Origin: a virus
Taxonomy: Duplodnaviria > Heunggongvirae > Uroviricota > Caudoviricetes
IMG/VR virus record: IMGVR_UViG_2541047687_000013
Coordinates: 1 to 10,077 of that record
DNA: 10,077 nt
Strand: one strand, 5' to 3'
The notes beneath the pieces were generated by a model. The model was not told where the DNA came from. It saw nothing but the letters and a program-made list of their open reading frames with translations, and did no database searches. Each line of letters opens with the position of its first letter. The stretch's first letter is position 1. A program made the translations under genes and the position numbers. Of this stretch, positions 1 to 8,254 are shown piece by piece.

Positions 1-15
1 AAACCAACGTTTATC
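1..15. other. Probable crossover half-site (hix/gix/cix/pix-like) for the adjacent serine invertase, truncated by the window edge
   Basis: Positions 1-15 read AAACC-AA-CGTTT-ATC, resembling the central AAACC-nn-GGTTT core of the 26-bp sites used by Hin/Gin/Cin/Pin invertases. It sits about 60 bp upstream of the invertase start, as in Mu gin, P1 cin and e14 pin. The left half lies outside the window, so it cannot be confirmed. Confidence 0.3.
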
Positions 16-73
16 TCTCAAATCCTCCCCACATTATCTCAGTACTTTAACCACTCAAAAGGGAGTATTTTTA

Positions 74-646
74 ATGCTGATTGGCTACATACGTGTGTCA
101 ACAAATGACCAAAACACAGATTTGCAACGCAATGCATTAATGTGCGCAGGATGTGAACAGATTTTTGAGGACAAAATGAGCGGAACCAAGTCGGAACGAC
201 CAGGCCTGAAACGCGCTTTAAAGTGCCTTAAAAGAGGGGATACATTGGTGGTCTGGAAGCTGGATCGGTTGGGTAGAAGAATGAAACACCTCATTGCTCT
301 CACAGAAGAGCTACGCGCAAAAGGTGTCAATTTTCGCAGTCTGACGGATTCAATCGATACCAGCACTCCGATGGGAAGGTTCTTTTTTCATATGATGGGT
401 GCACTGGCAGAAATGGAGCGTGAACTGATAGTTGAGCGCACGCTGGCAGGACTGGCTGCTGCGCGAGCACAAGGAAGAGTTGGAGGACGTCGCCCGAAAC
501 TGACGAAGGAGCAGCATGAGCAGATCGCAAGATTGCTCCAGAAAGGGTATGACAGAAAGCGGCTGGCAATTATCTATGATATTGGACTGTCAACGATCTA
601 CCGCTATCACCCTGTTGGGACTGTCATAACGCAACCTGAAATGTAA
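74..646 (+). CDS. pin: Serine recombinase, DNA invertase of the Pin/Gin/Hin/Cin family
   Basis: 190-aa ORF with the N-terminal resolvase/invertase catalytic motif GYIRVSTNDQ (active-site Ser), the conserved LVVWKLDRLGR and FRSLTDSIDT blocks, and a C-terminal helix-turn-helix (GRRPKLT). Closely resembles e14 PinE as recalled. GGGAG Shine-Dalgarno at 61-65. Confidence 0.9.
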   Translation: MLIGYIRVSTNDQNTDLQRNALMCAGCEQIFEDKMSGTKSERPGLKRALKCLKRGDTLVVWKLDRLGRRMKHLIALTEELRAKGVNFRSLTDSIDTSTPMGRFFFHMMGALAEMERELIVERTLAGLAAARAQGRVGGRRPKLTKEQHEQIARLLQKGYDRKRLAIIYDIGLSTIYRYHPVGTVITQPEM

Positions 647-699
647 TTCTTTTTCAAATAATGAAACGCCGCGTGGATGCCATTTATCGCACAAGATAG

Positions 700-2346
700 A
701 GTGCATTTATCGCGCGGCGCATCACCGAAGTCACCGCAGACAGCGGGGAATATCAGGTGCTGGCGCGCTGGGACACGCCGAAGGTGGTGAAGGGGGTGAG
801 CTTCCTGCTCCGTCTGACCGTAACAGCGGACGACGGCAGTGAGCGGCTGGTCAGCACGGCCCGGACGACGGAAACCACATACCGCTTCAGGCAACTGGCG
901 CTGGGGAACTACAGGCTGACAGTCCGGGCGGTAAATGCGTGGGGGCAGCAGGGCGATCCGGCGTCGGTATCGTTCCGGATTGCCGCACCGGCAGCACCGT
1001 CGAGGATTGAGCTGACGCCGGGCTATTTTCAGATAACCGCCACGCCGCATCTTGCCGTTTATGACCCGACGGTACAGTTTGAGTTCTGGTTCTCGGAAAA
1101 GCGGATTACCGATATCAGGAAGGTTGAAACCACAGCGCGCTATCTTGGTACGGCGCTGTACTGGATAGCCGCCAGTATCAATATCAAACCGGGCCATGAT
1201 TATTATTTTTACGTTCGCAGTGTGAACACCGTTGGCAAATCGGCATTCGTGGAGGCTGTCGGTCAGCCGAGTGATGATGCATCAGGCTATCTGGATTTTT
1301 TCAAAGGCGAGATAGGGAAAACCCATCTGGCTCAGGAGCTGTGGACGCAGATTGATAACGGTCAGCTTGCGCCTGACCTGACTGAAATCAGGACGTCCAT
1401 AACGGATGTCAGCAATGAAATAACACAGACCGTCAATAAGAAACTGGAAGACCAGAGTGCAGCGATCCAGCAGATACAGAAGGTTCAGGTTGATACAAAT
1501 AATAACCTGAACAGCATGTGGGCAGTGAAGCTGCAGCAGATGCAGGACGGACGCCTTTATATTGCGGGTATCGGTGCCGGTATTGAGAACACCCCTGACG
1601 GCATGCAGAGTCAGGTGCTGCTGGCAGCAGACAGGATTGCGATGATTAATCCTGCGAATGGCAACACAAAGCCGATGTTTGTTGGTCAGGGCGATCAGAT
1701 ATTCATGAATGAAGTGTTCCTGAAACGCCTGACGGCCCCCACCATTACCAGCGGCGGTAATCCTCCGGCATTTTCCCTGACATCAGACGGGAGACTGACG
1801 GCGAAAAATGCGGATATCAGTGGCAGTGTGAATGCGAACTCAGGAACGCTCAACAATGTCACGATTAACCAGAACTGTACGATTAAGGGCATGCTGGAGG
1901 CGACCCAGGTCAGAGGAGATTTCGTTAAAGCTGTATCAAAAGCCTTCCCGAAAAAAGTCGGTACGTGGGGTAACACGGAAACACCAAACGGTACGGTTAC
2001 AGTCACCATCAGCGATGATCATAACTTTGACCGCCAGATTATTATTCCGCCCATTATTTTTAACGGTATAGCGTATGACGATCCGGGGAGCGGAAATAAC
2101 CCAGGAGGCACGCGATACACGGGTTATGGTTTTGAAGTTCGCAAAAACGGCGTATTAATCGCATCCAGAGAAACTAAAGGGGCCATTCCCGGTAGTTACA
2201 GTGCAGTTATTGATATGCCGAGTGGCAGGGGAAGCGTCACTCTGGAGTTTAAGATTTTCCAGAAAGGCAATCAGGGGGCAGGCAATATCACCGACTGTAC
2301 GGTGATTGTGACCAAAAAAGCCGCTTCCGGCATCAGTATTCGTTGA
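700..2346 (+). pseudogene. J: 5'-truncated host specificity protein J (central tail fibre), C-terminal ~548 codons only
   Basis: The frame opens after an in-frame TAG at 697-699 and runs to TGA at 2344-2346. The translation ([56 protein letters not shown]...) matches the C-terminal half of lambda J as recalled. Only 53 bp separate it from the invertase stop, so the N-terminal ~590 codons are absent. No Shine-Dalgarno precedes the first in-frame GTG at 757. Confidence 0.8.
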
Positions 2347-2368
2347 AATATTTATAACCCCAATAAAG

Positions 2369-2394
2369 GGCGTCAGGAATGACGCCTTTTTTAT
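2369..2394 (+). terminator. Rho-independent terminator downstream of J remnant
   Basis: Perfect 7-bp stem GGCGTCA (2369-2375), loop GGAA, TGACGCC (2380-2386), followed by TTTTTTATT. Confidence 0.7.
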
Positions 2395-2416
2395 TGCAGA
2401 AAAGCGAGAGGTAATT

Positions 2417-3016
2417 ATGCGTAAAGTTTGTGCAGCAATTTTGTCCGCAGCCATTTGTCTGGCCGTATCCGGTGCGCCTGCATGGGCGTCTGAACATCAG
2501 TCCACGCTGAGCGCGGGGTATCTTCATGCCTCGACGAACGTCCCCGGCAGTGATGATCTGAACGGGATTAACGTGAAATACCGTTATGAGTTTACGGACA
2601 CACTGGGGCTGGTGACGTCATTCAGCTATGCAGGAGACAAGAATCGCCAGCTGACCCGTTACAGCGATACCCGCTGGCATGAAGATTCCGTTCGTAACCG
2701 CTGGTTCAGCGTAATGGCGGGGCCGTCTGTGCGCGTGAATGAATGGTTCAGCGCGTATGCGATGGCGGGTGTAGCTTACAGCCGTGTGTCGACTTTCTCC
2801 GGGGATTATCTTCGCGTAACTGACAACAAGGGGAAAAAGCACGATGTGCTGACCGGAAGTGATGACGGTCGCCACAGCAACACGTCTCTGGCGTGGGGGG
2901 CTGGCGTGCAGTTTAACCCGACCGAATCCGTGGCCATTGATATTGCTTATGAAGGCTCCGGCAGTGGTGACTGGCGCACTGACGGTTTCATCGTGGGTGT
3001 CGGTTATAAATTCTGA
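2417..3016 (+). CDS. lom: Lom outer membrane protein (Ail/Lom/PagC family eight-stranded beta-barrel)
   Basis: 199-aa ORF with an N-terminal signal peptide (MRKVCAAILSAAICLAVSGAPAWA). Blocks INVKYRYE, YAMAGVAYSR and the C-terminal DIAYEGSGSGDWRTDGFIVGVGYKF match lambda Lom as recalled. GAGAGG Shine-Dalgarno at 2405-2410. Position between J and stf is as in lambda. Confidence 0.9.
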   Translation: MRKVCAAILSAAICLAVSGAPAWASEHQSTLSAGYLHASTNVPGSDDLNGINVKYRYEFTDTLGLVTSFSYAGDKNRQLTRYSDTRWHEDSVRNRWFSVMAGPSVRVNEWFSAYAMAGVAYSRVSTFSGDYLRVTDNKGKKHDVLTGSDDGRHSNTSLAWGAGVQFNPTESVAIDIAYEGSGSGDWRTDGFIVGVGYKF

Positions 3017-3042
3017 TTAGCCAGGTAACACAGTGTTATGAC

Positions 3043-3070
3043 AGCCCGCCGGTTCAGGCGGGCTTTTTTG
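3043..3070 (+). terminator. Rho-independent terminator downstream of lom
   Basis: Stem AGCCCGCC (3043-3050), loop GGTTCA, GGCGGGCT (3057-3064), followed by a T6 run and GTGGGG. Confidence 0.75.
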
Positions 3071-3080
3071 TGGGGTGAAT

Positions 3081-6000
3081 ATGGCAGTAAAGATTTCAGG
3101 TGTACTGAAAGACGGCACAGGAAAACCGGTACAGAACTGCACAATCCAGCTGAAAGCAAAACGTAACAGCACCACGGTGGTGGTGAACACGCTGGCCTCA
3201 GAAAATCCGGATGAAGCCGGGCGTTACAGCATGGACGTTGAGTACGGGCAGTACAGCGTTATTCTGTTGGTGGAGGGATTCCCGCCGTCACATGCCGGGA
3301 CCATCACCGTGTATGAAGATTCCCGACCCGGTACGCTGAATGATTTTCTCGGTGCCATGACGGAGGATGATGCCCGTCCTGAGGCACTGCGCCGTTTTGA
3401 ACTGATGGTGGAAGAGGTGGCGCGTAACGCGTCCGCGGTGGCACAGAACACGGCAGCCGTGAAGAAGTCAGCCAGCGATGCCAGCACATCAGCCCGTGAG
3501 GCGGCAACCCATGCGACTGATGCTGCAGGCTCAGCACGCGCAGCCAGCACGTCAGCCGGACAGGCCGCGTCGTCGGCTCAGTCAGCATCTTCCAGCGCAG
3601 GAACGGCATCAACAAAGGCCAGTGAAGCATCGAAAAGTGCTGCTGCTGCAGAGTCCTCAAAAAGCGCGGCAGCTACCAGTGCCGCTGCGGCGAAAACGTC
3701 AGAAACGAATGCGGCAGCGTCACAACAATCAGCAGCCACTTCTGCATCCGCCGCGACCACGAAGGCGTCAGAAGCAGCCACCTCAGCCCGGGATGCGGCG
3801 GCCTCAAAAGAGGCAGCGAAATCATCAGAAACGAACGCATCATCAAGCGCCAGTAGTGCCGCTTCCTCGGCAACGGCGGCAGCAAATTCTGCGAAGGCGG
3901 CCAAAACGTCTGAGACAAACGCCAGGTCTTCTGAAACGGCAGCGGGACAGAGCGCCTCGGCTGCGGCAGGCTCAAAAACAGCGGCTGCGTCGTCTGCCAG
4001 TGCCGCGTCAACAAGTGCCGGGCAGGCCTCAGCCAGTGCCACCGCCGCCGGAAAATCGGCAGAAAGTGCCGCATCGTCTGCTTCAACAGCCACAACGAAG
4101 GCTGGCGAAGCCACTGAACAGGCCAGCGCAGCAGCGAGGTCTGCTTCCGCAGCGAAGACATCCGAGACGAACGCGAAAGCGTCGGAAACCAGCGCAGAAT
4201 CCTCAAAAACGGCTGCCGCATCGTCCGCCAGTTCGGCGGCGTCATCGGCATCATCGGCGTCTGCTTCAAAAGATGAGGCGACCAGACAAGCGTCCGCAGC
4301 GAAGGGCAGCGCCACGACAGCATCCACGAAGGCGACAGAGGCAGCTGGCAGTGCGACGGCGGCAGCACAGAGCAAAAGTACGGCGGAATCCGCGGCAACG
4401 CGCGCCGAGACAGCGGCAAAACGGGCAGAGGATATTGCATCCGCCGTGGCGCTTGAGGATGCAAGTACGACGAAAAAGGGGATAGTACAGCTCAGCAGTG
4501 CGACCAACAGTACGTCTGAAACGCTGGCGGCAACGCCAAAGGCAGTAAAATCAGCCTATGACAATGCAGAGAAACGTCTGCAGAAAGACCAGAACGGCGC
4601 TGATATACCCGATAAGGGACGCTTCCTGAACAACATTAACGCGGTCAGTAAAACAGACTTTGCTGATAAGCGTGGTATGCGTTATGTGCGGGTTAACGCT
4701 CCTGCAGGTGCAATATCTGGAAAATATTACCCTGTTGTTGTTATGCGTTCTGCTGGCTCAGTAAGCGAACTGGCATCAAGGGTCATTATCACCACGGCAA
4801 CGCGAACCGCAGGCGATCCGATGAATAACTGCGAGTTTAACGGATTTGTTATGCCTGGTGGCTGGACTGACAGGGGGCGTTATGCTTATGGAATGTTCTG
4901 GCAATATCAAAACAATGAACGAGCCATCCACTCAATAATGATGAGTAATAAGGGCGATGATTTGCGCTCTGTGTTCTATGTTGATGGCGCTGCTTTCCCT
5001 GTTTTTGCGTTTATCGAAGATGGCCTGTCAATATCCGCACCTGGTGCTGATCTCGTTGTTAATGATACGACCTATAAGTTTGGGGCAACAAATCCGGCGA
5101 CTGAATGTATCGCGGCGGACGTTATCCTTGATTTTAAGAGTGGGCGTGGTTTTTATGAGTCTCATTCGTTAATCGTTAACGATAACTTGTCGTGCAAAAA
5201 ACTTTTTGCCACAGACGAAATTGTAGCGCGTGGTGGTAATCAGATTCGAATGATAGGTGGGGAGTATGGGGCATTATGGCGTAATGATGGCGCTAAAACT
5301 TACCTGCTGCTTACCAATCAAGGTGATGTTTATGGTGGCTGGAATACATTAAGACCGTTTGCTATTGATAACGCAACCGGCGAACTGGTTATTGGAACCA
5401 AACTGTCCGCAAGTCTGAACGGTAATGCATTAACAGCAACAAAGCTGCAAACGCCAAGACGGGTTTCTGGTGTTGAGTTTGATGGTTCCAAAGATATTAC
5501 TTTAACCGCCGCGCATGTGGCTGCTTTTGCCAGAAGGGCAACGGATACATATGCCGATGCGGATGGTGGCGTTCCCTGGAATGCCGAATCAGGCGCTTAC
5601 AATGTCACCCGCTCTGGCGACAGCTATATTCTGGTTAACTTCTATACCGGAGTCGGAAGTTGCCGGACCCTGCAGATGAAGGCGCATTACAGAAATGGTG
5701 GTCTGTTCTACCGTTCTTCAAGAGATGGCTATGGTTTTGAGGAAGACTGGGCAGAAGTTTATACCTCGAAAAATCTTCCACCAGAAAGCTACCCAGTCGG
5801 CGCACCAATCCCGTGGCCATCAGATACCGTTCCGTCTGGTTATGCCCTGATGCAGGGGCAGACTTTTGACAAATCTGCCTACCCGAAACTTGCTGCCGCT
5901 TATCCGTCAGGCGTGATCCCTGATTTGCGTGGCTGGACGATTAAGGGCAAGCCCGCCAGTGGTCGTGCCGTATTGTCTCAGGAACAGGATGGCATTAAAT

Positions 6001-6479
6001 CGCATACCCACAGCGCCAGCGCATCCAGTACGGATTTGGGGACGAAAACCACATCGTCGTTTGATTACGGCACTAAATCCACGAATAACACTGGTGCGCA
6101 TACCCATAGTTTAAGTGGCAGCACGAATGCAGCTGGTAATCACAGCCATAGAGATGGCCGTCGATTTAACCCCAGTGTTTTTAAAGATACTTATCAATAT
6201 GGTTATACAAGCTCAGGTCAAAATACCTGGGGTGTACAAGGCTCAGTAGGTATGTCTACGGGGTGGTTAGCGAATACCAGTACAGATGGTAATCATAGCC
6301 ATTCACTGTCCGGCACAGCAGCATCTGCAGGTGCACACGCGCATACTGTCGGTATTGGTGCTCATACGCACTCCGTTGCGATTGGTTCACATGGACACAC
6401 CATCACCGTTAACGCTGCTGGTAACGCGGAAAACACCGTCAAAAACATCGCATTTAACTATATTGTGAGGCTTGCATAA
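3081..6479 (+). CDS. stf: Side tail fibre protein Stf, mosaic
   Basis: The N-terminus [80 protein letters not shown] and the C-terminus ...[31 protein letters not shown] match lambda/Rac Stf as recalled. The ORF track begins at GTG 3075, but ATG 3081 with a GGGGTG Shine-Dalgarno fits the lambda start. Long Ala/Ser-rich shaft and His-x-His-rich tip. Confidence 0.9.
3460..4490 (+). repeat. GC-rich imperfect tandem repeat region encoding the Ala/Ser/Thr-rich fibre shaft of Stf
   Basis: Recurring nucleotide units such as AAAACGTCAGAAACGAATGC, TCATCAGAAACGAACGCATC, AAAACGTCTGAGACAAACGCC and AAGACATCCGAGACGAACGCG, encoding repeated AAKTSETNA / SASAAS-type peptide units. The low complexity spawns long spurious ORFs in every other frame. 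Confidence 0.8.
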
Positions 6480-7063
6480 TGGCATTCAGAATGAGTGAAC
6501 AAGCACGGACCATAAAAATTTATAATCTGCTGGCCGGAACTAATGAATTTATTGGTGAAGGTGATGCATATATTCCGCCTCATACAGGTCTGCCAGCAAA
6601 CAGTACCGATATTGCACCACCAGATATTCCTGCTGGCTTCGTGGTTGTTTTCAACAGTGATGAGGCATCGTGGCATCTCGTTGAAGACCATCGGGGTAAA
6701 ACGGTTTATGACGTAGCGTCAGGGGACGAGTTATTTATTTCTGAACTCGGTCCGTTACCGGAAAATGTTACCTGGTTATCGCCGGAAGGGGAGTTTCAGA
6801 AGTGGAACGGCACAGCCTGGGTGAAAGATGCAGAAGCAGAAAAACTGTTCCGGATCCGAGAGGCGGAAGAAATAAAAAACAGCCTGATGCAGGTAGCCAG
6901 TGAGCATATTGCGCCACTTCAGGATGCTGTAGATCTGGAAATCGCAACGGAGGAAGAAACCTCATTGCTGGAAGCCTGGAAAAAGTATCGGGTGTTGCTG
7001 AACCGTGTTGATACATCAACTGCACCTGATATTGAGTGGCCTACGAACCCTGTCAGGGAGTAA
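6479..7063 (+). CDS. tfa: Tail fibre assembly protein Tfa
   Basis: 194-aa ORF; [54 protein letters not shown]... and the C-terminal ...[21 protein letters not shown] match lambda Tfa as recalled. The ATG overlaps the stf stop (TAATG at 6477-6481), suggesting translational coupling. Confidence 0.9.
6899..7018 (+). repeat. Direct repeat copy A (tfa 3' end), partner at 7948-8067
   Basis: Manual alignment with 7948-8067 shows about 13 mismatches over 120 bp, with the first ~60 bp nearly identical. Confidence 0.8.
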
Positions 7064-7078
7064 TCATTGGGATTATGC

Positions 7079-7110
7079 CGCAGCACGTCTTAAGCAAGAA
7101 CGTGCTGCGG
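7079..7110. terminator. Hairpin between convergent tfa and methyltransferase genes, possible bidirectional terminator
   Basis: Perfect 11-bp inverted repeat CCGCAGCACGT (7078-7088) / ACGTGCTGCGG (7100-7110) with an 11-nt loop. A T6 run at 7121-7126 lies on the plus strand, but 10 nt from the stem, so a terminator role is uncertain. Confidence 0.4.
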
Positions 7111-7117
7111 TTGGATG

Positions 7118-7786
7118 CTATTTTTTCCCTGAAGCGGAAAACATTACTACAGTACCTTGAACCTTGGTTTTAACATTCTCGAAATGCTCTGAGAGTATAT
7201 GTGTTAAGCCTTCTTCGGAATCTTTTGTGTTTGAAAAGATGCCTTTCTGATTGTAAATGCGCATCAGTTTTTGACCGAAGCTATTGTGCACAACTCCATC
7301 GCCAAGAATTGTGGCTCCGTATAGAGTTCCATCGTCAGTTAAGGCCTGCGCCGCATTGCGTATTACACAGCTTTTTGTAGATATATTTCCAGGCAGGCAG
7401 TGAAGAAGGTAAAACATGGAAATGGAATCAAATTGACCATGTAACGCCGCGGGATAAGGTTCAAAAACATCATGGCTAATTTTATGTTTAATTTTTGATT
7501 CCCCAGCCCTTGTAGATGCCGCGTTCAGGCTAGCTTCGTTCAAATCCATTAAAGATATCAGACTACTCTCAGGTACGTGAGTAAGGTAAAACCCAGTTCC
7601 AACACCAATATCCAGATGGTTGTTACCTAAATGTTCCAGAAAGTGTGGAAGAAGGTGTTCCTTTGTAGGACATCCCCATGCAAGCCGATTTGATACTCCC
7701 AAAACCCACCAGTCATAAAGCTTTAGGGTAAGTGGTGTGTAAATTTTAGCCCCATCATCTGTGTTTTTTTTCATTAATTTCACCAT
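7118..7786 (-). CDS. ybcY: Class I SAM-dependent methyltransferase (Rossmann fold), substrate unknown; ybcY-like by position
   Basis: 222-aa ORF with motif I HLDIGVGTGFY (hh-D/E-h-G-x-G-x-G), an acidic post-I residue (LMDLN) and an FDSISMFYLLHCLP block typical of small-molecule/protein methyltransferases. No DPPY/NPPY or PC motifs, so probably not a DNA methyltransferase. The second ATG (7772-7774) has a GGTGA Shine-Dalgarno and may be the true start. Gene symbol is from recalled synteny with K-12 DLP12 (tfaD-ybcY-tfaX), not from sequence identity. Confidence 0.75.
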   Translation of the reverse strand: MVKLMKKNTDDGAKIYTPLTLKLYDWWVLGVSNRLAWGCPTKEHLLPHFLEHLGNNHLDIGVGTGFYLTHVPESSLISLMDLNEASLNAASTRAGESKIKHKISHDVFEPYPAALHGQFDSISMFYLLHCLPGNISTKSCVIRNAAQALTDDGTLYGATILGDGVVHNSFGQKLMRIYNQKGIFSNTKDSEEGLTHILSEHFENVKTKVQGTVVMFSASGKK

Positions 7787-7815
7787 GTTATAGTTTTATT
7801 TGTGAATTAAATCAA
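7787..7815 (-). promoter_or_regulatory. Candidate sigma70 promoter for the methyltransferase gene
   Basis: On the minus strand, TTGATT (complement of 7810-7815), a 17-nt spacer, then TATAAC (complement of 7787-7792), immediately upstream of the ORF. Consensus-like spacing; not verified. Confidence 0.3.
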
Positions 7816-7842
7816 TTATGGCGATGAATTACAAGGGGTTAA

Positions 7843-8148
7843 ATGCTGCCGCAGCATAGCGATATTGAAATAGCCTGGTATGCTTCGATACAACAGGAGC
7901 CGAATGGCTGGAAGACCGTCACCACACAGTTCTACATCCAGGAATTCAGTGAGTATATTGCGCCACTGCAGGATGCTGTAGATCTGGAAATCGCAACGGA
8001 GGAAGAAAGATCGTTGCTGGAGGCATGGAATAAATATCGGGTATTGTTGAATCGAGTTGATACATCAGTAGCTCTGGGTATGAAGCTGTTTGTAACTCAT
8101 GTTACAGTAACAGTCATTACTATCTCGAAGGTGCAAAATGTATATTGA
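7843..8148 (+). pseudogene. tfaX: Tail fibre assembly protein remnant (tfaX-like), reading through into unrelated sequence
   Basis: The ORF contains [38 protein letters not shown], almost identical to the Tfa C-terminus at 6899-7018. The Tfa-like N-terminal body is absent and the native C-terminal tail is replaced by read-through. Nucleotide repeat copy B is 7948-8067. Confidence 0.7.
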
Positions 8149-8254
8149 TTTGATATTTTATAAATTTACTTCGAATCTGGCACGTCAACTTTTGATTAAA
8201 GTAATATCAGTTTTCGGCGAAAAAAGGACCGTGTACATGAGACGATTTCATACA

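Follow-up and report, generated by a model that had tools for sequence, protein, structure and literature searches.

Gene organization of the ybcY locus

The stretch of viral DNA analysed here (10,077 nt; hereafter the window) carries on its minus strand a ybcY-type methyltransferase gene, whose coding sequence from the conserved start codon occupies 7118..7774 (218 amino acids plus stop), as delimited by PHROG 2132 and an alignment of homologues. Its left neighbour is the tail fibre assembly gene tfa (6479..7063, plus strand; Pfam Caudo_TAP, E 1.6e-44, and RefSeq). On the other side lies a tfaX-like tail fibre assembly remnant (7843..8148, plus strand), which is divergent from the methyltransferase gene, matches Caudo_TAP at positions 75-121 only and is partial in RefSeq with its N-terminus missing. 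The GC content of the methyltransferase gene is 40.8%, against 48.6% for the window.

This arrangement corresponds to a known position in prophage DLP12. The gene order in K-12 is tfa' - methyltransferase - tfaX' - appY - ompT, and in strains matching the window it is tfa - methyltransferase - tfa' - alpha/beta hydrolase - ompT. Specifically, DLP12 ybcY (b0562) has the same promoter, a tfa remnant on each side and ompT downstream; the two loci differ in that DLP12 of K-12 carries appY and the window a secreted alpha/beta hydrolase gene instead. The name ybcY has been used for the locus beside tfaX (PMC3946193) and beside ompT (PMC6854850), and in a published map of the locus for CFT073, 536 and related strains, ybcY and ompT are 272 bp apart (PMC6854850). 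The positional match to ybcY of DLP12 proposed in an earlier sequence-only reading of this DNA is therefore borne out by the shared tfa-remnant and ompT neighbours.

The same protein occurs at 99-100% amino-acid identity in 15 phage records, among them two of the genus Nesevirus (ev243 and 2G7b), Kati, Turner and several PhiR phages such as PhiR29_1. In ev243, genes are ordered J - lom - tail protein - ... - methyltransferase - tfa' - alpha/beta hydrolase - ompT - int, so that the methyltransferase, the hydrolase and ompT are all cargo in the arm that leads from the tail fibres to the attachment site. The description of the gene as a moron is supported by its deviant base composition and its presence as cargo in lambdoid phage genomes. 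Literature searches on ev243 and 2G7b returned nothing relevant.

Several further features accompany these genes. The hydrolase ORF (8332..9816, minus strand) encodes a 494-aa secreted alpha/beta hydrolase of the TAP-like/prolyl aminopeptidase type, whose N-terminus appears to be a signal peptide; it sits where K-12 has appY, and it matches PHROG 20134 (function not assigned) and the PADLOC candidate defence model C3a206 (3e-55). Just downstream of its stop (8332), in a spacer of 32% GC, lies a terminator-like hairpin with a 14-bp stem and a T-rich tail (8276..8311, minus strand). Within the 3' half of the intact tfa, Rfam IS009 (RF02111) gives a full-length match of 227.8 bits at 6822..7020 (plus strand), and this candidate sRNA family seems to be tfa coding sequence, left as intergenic debris in K-12. 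RefSeq additionally calls a 45-aa ORF at about 7036..7173 (plus strand), overlapping the 3' end of tfa and antisense to the 3' end of the methyltransferase gene (WP_001309429.1, "hypothetical protein"; the K-12 version is WP_071592174.1, "nucleocapsid protein"). We considered this ORF as a real part of the feature and set it aside as a probably spurious gene call. Further upstream, the side tail fibre protein (3075..6479, plus strand; 1,134 aa) contains a low-complexity stretch of about 340 residues rich in Ala, Ser and Thr, which is a source of spurious long ORFs, both in other frames and on the complementary strand, and gpJ is reduced to its last 529 codons (757..2346).

Positions 725-10077 of the window are 100% identical to strain SW071618. 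In the first ~740 bases lie a hix-like core, AAACCAACGTTT (1-12), and an invertase gene of the Pin/Hin type (74..646). A search for complete E. coli genomes covering at least 80% of window positions 1-1100 gave 0 records. The junction in 1..760 is due either to an assembly join or to a rearrangement of the prophage that only the source strain has. A candidate hix/pix-like invertase site, GAACCTTGGTTT, inside the 3' end of the methyltransferase gene (7159-7170), was rejected as a chance occurrence: with one mismatch allowed, as many matches or more were seen in 11 of 200 shuffles, and compared with hixL, each half-site matches at 7 of 12 positions only.

The window carries an intact ybcY allele that almost certainly starts at the second ATG

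The minus-strand ORF 7118..7786 runs through 222 codons without interruption, as the sequence-only reading had stated. Its translation is identical to RefSeq WP_000239881.1 ("class I SAM-dependent methyltransferase"), which is annotated in strain E2865, and the DNA of positions 7050..7900 is 100% identical to that strain. The window gene is an intact allele of ybcY. The sequence-only reading had named disabling changes relative to full-length homologues as what would overturn this view; none was found, and all residues that are invariant in 32 homologues are kept.

The first four codons of this ORF, MVKL (7775..7786, minus strand), begin at a non-conserved upstream ATG and are present in the 222-aa RefSeq model. 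Four lines of evidence place the start codon at the second ATG instead. The PHROG 2132 profile aligns over all of its 218 positions (1-218) with residues 5-222 of the 222-codon ORF (E 7.9e-157). The Met of the second ATG is the first residue in all but one of the 32 aligned homologues; the codons MVKL are missing from the homologues in other genera, most of which are ~218-224 aa long. In strain EcPF5 the first ATG reads ACG and the RefSeq model has 218 aa, and in CFT073-type copies the alignment to the 222-codon ORF begins only at base 3. The true start is thus almost certainly the second ATG (7774), judging from these alignments, giving a predicted product of 218 aa and ~24 kDa with a pI of 6.9 and 20 K+R against 21 D+E. 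No hydrophobic segment was found in the protein, and the product is best explained as a soluble protein.

The K-12 copy has lost its start codon

The sequence-only reading had described ybcY of K-12 as a disrupted pseudogene, and this is correct. The orthologue in K-12 W3110 is annotated "frameshifted" and is 98.9% identical to the window gene at the DNA level. Alignment of the two locates the lesion at the start codon and the run of eight A residues that follows it (ATG-A8, 7764..7774, minus strand): ATGAAAAAAAAC in the window becomes ATAAAAAAAC in K-12, a loss of 2 nt (the G and one A) that destroys the conserved ATG. As a result, the upstream ATG of K-12 now lies in a frame that ends after 9 codons. 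The main frame is otherwise open over 216 codons, with a K-to-R and an F-to-S substitution as its sole changes and with stops directly upstream. The K-12 ybcY is a young pseudogene lacking a start, which two restored bases could repair.

The same short stretch carries other lesions. In the poultry strain E6, A8 is shortened to A7 at the same place, a different lesion, and the gene is annotated frameshifted; in a non-laboratory isolate from chicken meat the allele, likewise annotated frameshifted, has the K-12 length of 667 nt. Mutation or slippage may thus have a small hot spot at ATG-A8.

Intact copies are the norm in E. coli

The coding sequence is present in 3,832 of 5,426 complete E. coli genomes (~70%), at up to 4 places per genome. 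In a census by length over an evenly spaced sample of 60 records, which gave 59 full-length rows, 52 rows show no length change and 7 show the 667-nt K-12-type span, mostly in laboratory K-12 derivatives. A 69-nt probe across the start codon finds the K-12 type in 4 of 40 rows and a 1-nt deletion in one row. Because both samples are rank-spaced and blind to nonsense mutations, the intact share is an estimate: about 85-90% of the sampled E. coli copies are without length change, and the K-12 lesion accounts for about 10-12%. Intact copies occur in O157:H7, O111, O121, 042, CFT073, 536, NU14, S88 and ST131. The contrast between an intact methyltransferase moron here and a pseudogene in K-12 is thus real, but the intact state is neither rare nor special. 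Existing annotation already covers the ybcY gene and its being a pseudogene in K-12, and the intact allele is ordinary.

The proposed promoter and Shine-Dalgarno sequence conflict

A sigma-70-type promoter sequence, TTGATT-17-TATAAC, lies immediately upstream of the ORF (7787..7815, minus strand), with hexamers identical in K-12. The same hexamers were given for ybcY in a genomic-SELEX study (Shimada et al., PMC3946193), inside a binding site of the sigma-70 (RpoD) holoenzyme in the divergent ybcY/tfaX spacer of K-12 that is flagged for H-NS (PMC3946193). This support consists of in-vitro binding in K-12, with hexamers picked by inspection. A generic promoter scan misses the site because TATAAC lacks the final T.

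The candidate Shine-Dalgarno sequence is GGTGA (7784..7780), 5 nt ahead of the second ATG (7774). The sequence-only reading had paired it with the promoter above, and both sequences are indeed present; however, they cannot both work as proposed. The -10 element TATAAC abuts the first ATG, ending one base before it, and leaves almost no leader. A transcript from TTGATT-17-TATAAC would begin at about 7781-7778, thereby losing the first ATG and most of GGTGA. Either the mRNA would be nearly leaderless, or transcription would begin further upstream. An alternative promoter-like site, TTAACC-16-CATAAT (7815..7842, minus strand; 9/12 matches in a consensus scan), is predicted to leave a leader of ~34 nt that includes the Shine-Dalgarno sequence. 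Binding by H-NS may keep the gene silent under laboratory conditions.

Between the convergent stops of tfa and the methyltransferase gene lies a GC-rich hairpin (7078..7110), whose folding energy on the minus strand is -23.9 kcal/mol (z -5.6), compared with -28.5 kcal/mol (z -4.3) for the plus strand. The stem is followed by no U-run on the minus strand and by a T-run ~9 nt downstream on the plus strand, and a terminator scan of the window does not include the hairpin among its calls. It is a possible bidirectional terminator.

SAM-binding motifs and family membership

The protein matches Pfam Methyltransf_12, Methyltransf_23, Methyltransf_25 and Methyltransf_11, all above their gathering cut-offs, with Methyltransf_12 at 37.6 bits against a cut-off of 30. 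SAM-binding motif I, HLDIGVGTG, is encoded at 7592..7618 (minus strand; regex match) and spans residues 57-65 when the count begins at the first ATG. Numbered from the second ATG, as are the conserved residues named below, the acidic residue after beta-2 is D77 (LMDLN), which from its position would contact the ribose hydroxyls, and H101-D102 and F115-D116-S117 are present further on. Across 32 homologues that are 56-90% identical to the window protein, 58 alignment columns are invariant; these include D55, G57, G59, T60, G61, D77, H101, D116 and S117, and D102 is kept in at least 90% of the sequences. The full set of class I SAM-binding motifs ascribed to the ORF is therefore present, with motif I, D77, H101-D102 and FDS invariant or nearly so. 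Among 87 more distant relatives (32-56% identity), Y20, D77, H125, G153, N182 and D185 are invariant, and at least 90% of the sequences keep Y12, D21, W33, C35, H53 and C126.

Assignment to a subfamily went no further than this level. The best NCBIfam match of the protein reaches 17 bits against cut-offs of 175-180 (UbiE/MenG, UbiG, BioC, NodS, CpaM and RquA), and among the 87 distant relatives BioC, UbiE, CpaM and NodS appear below threshold only (best E 1e-10). The subfamily search suggested in the sequence-only reading thus yields a Methyltransf_12 match above its cut-off and nothing sharper, no NCBIfam cut-off being reached.

The family is large. A profile search of 1.84 billion representatives recovers 424 clusters at E <= 1e-30 and 1,132 at E <= 1e-10, that is, more than 400 clusters at 50% identity. 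The distant members that carry names belong to Acidobacteria, Bacteroidota and a lichen fungus, and the cluster names are generic. PHROG 2132, WP_000239881.1, WP_000239877.1 and WP_000742375.1 match over their full length without meaningful difference. Closer relatives (79-90% identity) occur at a Citrobacter locus beside dinI, on a plasmid-like contig with ccdAB and kfrA, on an IS-rich contig and on a contig with perC and an autotransporter gene. Homologues of the STM1638 type in Salmonella, Enterobacter hormaechei and Yersinia are 56-65% identical over the full length, keep all signature residues and are likewise monocistronic; unlike the prophage-borne window gene, they sit in chromosomal islands with unrelated non-phage neighbourhoods. 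In Salmonella the copy has a cytochrome b561 gene downstream of it, as in the published STM1638-rydC-cybB layout, from which we infer that it is STM1638. No common partner gene was found across the Salmonella, Enterobacter, Yersinia, Citrobacter and plasmid-like neighbourhoods, and domain fusions in ten longer relatives are uninformative, one RCC1 fusion being of doubtful meaning.

A gene or gene fragment for an Rce1-like protein (CPBP intramembrane protease) lies ~0.5-0.8 kb downstream of the homologues in Yersinia and on an IS-rich Salmonella contig (L008, 9170..9361, and L020, 2328..3158). In the eukaryotic order of events, Rce1 proteolysis is followed by carboxyl methylation. These are two unrelated contexts, and the co-occurrence may be a coincidence.

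Predicted fold and mechanism

An AlphaFold2 model of the protein (mean pLDDT 90.8, pTM 0.88) is predicted to adopt a class I (Rossmann-type) SAM-dependent methyltransferase fold with an N-terminal helical cap. Membership of class I is indicated by the seven-stranded alpha/beta fold together with a profile match above a curated threshold. Foldseek places a bacterial phosphatidylethanolamine N-methyltransferase (PmtA) first, followed by JHAMT, a Plasmodium phosphoethanolamine N-methyltransferase and polyketide C-methyltransferases, with TM scores of 0.54-0.67 and identities of 12-21%. No single one of the solved fold neighbours stands out. PmtA (8ys9), JHAMT (7ec0), the Plasmodium PMT (3uj7), BelI/CysG (9fce/9g0k), NodS (3ofj) and UbiG (4kdr) share the fold and a similar size, and these solved small-molecule and lipid methyltransferases have matching SAM motifs and a His at the same position after motif IV. 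They differ from the window protein in sequence (13-21% identity), and the sequence match covers the SAM core alone (E 1e-6 to 1e-3). In line with this, PDB searches with the protein and two profiles returned matches to the SAM core only (best E 1e-6) and no close solved structure. The N-terminal YD and WxC signature and the HC pair are found in the ybcY family only and not in the solved neighbours. In the alignment with CysG(N-16), H125 falls on the His of its SIHALEH segment, which was mutated by the depositors.

These features suggest a mechanism in which SAM would be bound via motif I (DIGVGTG), D77 and H101-D102. The adjoining pocket is probably lined by the family-specific residues Y12, Y20-D21, W33-x-C35, H53 and H125-C126. 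H125, located where other small-molecule methyltransferases have a conserved His, may act as the general base, and the methyl group would be passed to a small molecule or a lipid head-group rather than to DNA.

A DNA target is very unlikely. An orphan DNA methyltransferase could protect phage or host DNA from restriction or play an epigenetic role; phages often carry such enzymes, and PADLOC gives a marginal match to mad2 (E 0.0033, 14 bits). PADLOC makes no defence-system assignment for the methyltransferase, however, and neither [DNS]PP[YFWH] nor PC[QK] occurs in the protein or in any of 119 aligned family sequences (two alignments). The single ENV, at residue 203, is non-conserved and considered incidental. 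Pfam N6_Mtase and N6_N4_Mtase do not match the protein, and both the Pfam matches obtained and the fold neighbours disagree with a DNA target. We agree with the sequence-only reading that the missing motifs argue against a DNA methyltransferase, and regard such an activity as highly improbable.

Purifying selection and persistence in decayed prophages

Nei-Gojobori estimates of dN/dS lie between 0.09 and 0.20 overall. Specifically, dN/dS is 0.09-0.11 against E. coli B2 alleles (536 and EcPF5; dS 0.035-0.042), 0.20 against Citrobacter (dS 0.22), 0.17 against the copy on a Salmonella plasmid-like contig (dS 0.41) and 0.11 against a second Salmonella allele (dS 1.0). These values indicate that the gene is under purifying selection. 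Additionally, the methyltransferase gene is intact in 536, EcPF5, the ST131 strain 751 and 2023CK-01341, in which the neighbouring tfa, integrase, recombinase and DinI genes are partial or frameshifted. The gene thus appears to serve the host rather than the virion.

Taken together, ybcY is best read as encoding a fitness factor of the lysogen, a cytoplasmic methyltransferase acting on a small molecule or a lipid head-group. On this reading ybcY would be a stand-alone cargo gene in the arm from the tail fibres to the attachment site of DLP12/Nesevirus-type lambdoid prophages, read in the opposite direction to the late operon from a sigma-70 promoter of its own that is bound by H-NS (K-12, in vitro). 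Its persistence would reflect a benefit to the lysogen and not to the virion, with purifying selection probably keeping it in decayed prophage remnants. To this explanation as a whole (an intact ybcY cargo gene for a small-molecule or lipid methyltransferase that benefits the lysogen and has lost its start codon in K-12) we assign a probability of roughly 0.6.

Competing explanations concern the target, the beneficiary and whether there is a function at all. A macromolecular target such as tRNA, rRNA or protein, through which the enzyme might alter translation or give resistance, is unlikely though it deserves some weight: the top structural matches are mostly small-molecule enzymes, the near-neutral protein (pI 6.9) has no additional RNA-binding domain, and weak NCBIfam matches are seen in just 1-4 of the 87 distant members, far under the cut-offs. 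That the gene is a functionless passenger, open merely through recent acquisition, could draw on its probably H-NS-silenced promoter and on its loss without obvious cost in K-12 and some wild strains. Such a passenger is difficult to reconcile with low dN/dS across dS of up to ~1, with the 58 columns invariant in 32 homologues and the more than 400 clusters at 50% identity, or with a gene that outlives its neighbours in decayed prophages, and we give it a low probability.

We consider it quite improbable that the gene acts for the phage in lytic growth or assembly instead of in the lysogen, for example by modifying a tail-fibre component. This role would fit the constant embedding of the gene among tfa genes or fragments in E. 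coli, but the gene runs against the late operon with a predicted sigma-70 promoter of its own and is intact where functional tail genes are gone, and its homologues of 56-65% identity in Salmonella, Enterobacter and Yersinia sit in non-phage contexts, with one further context being plasmid-like.

A more far-reaching reading makes ybcY the founding member of a family of lysogenic-conversion enzymes defined by the Y-D / W-x-C / H...H-C signature, which we put forward as a speculative and rather doubtful proposal. If it were true, the enzyme would methylate an abundant host molecule, such as the phosphatidylethanolamine head-group as PmtA does, or alternatively detoxify a gut or competitor-derived compound, and such a benefit would explain why the gene outlives the surrounding prophage. 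The family would then span enterobacterial prophages, plasmids and islands and also include members in Acidobacteria, Bacteroidota and fungi.

Significance of an intact ybcY

The earlier observation and interpretation hold in essence. To the existing annotation the present analysis adds the exact K-12 lesion and the corrected start codon, and further the conflict between promoter and Shine-Dalgarno sequence, the signs that the gene is under selection and persists in decayed prophages, and the finding that no known subfamily claims the protein.

Literature searches on ybcY and STM1638 yielded incidental mentions only, namely a promoter table, locus maps and one null phenotype. The null phenotype was reported for a ybcY mutant of K-12 that overexpressed Hha; since the gene is a pseudogene in this strain, it is uninformative. 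The gene has been left unstudied in part because K-12, the main strain for work on E. coli gene function, has a dead copy. Yet it is among the commonest prophage cargo genes of E. coli, present in about 70% of complete genomes and under purifying selection, and finding its substrate would add a lysogenic-conversion function beside ompT.
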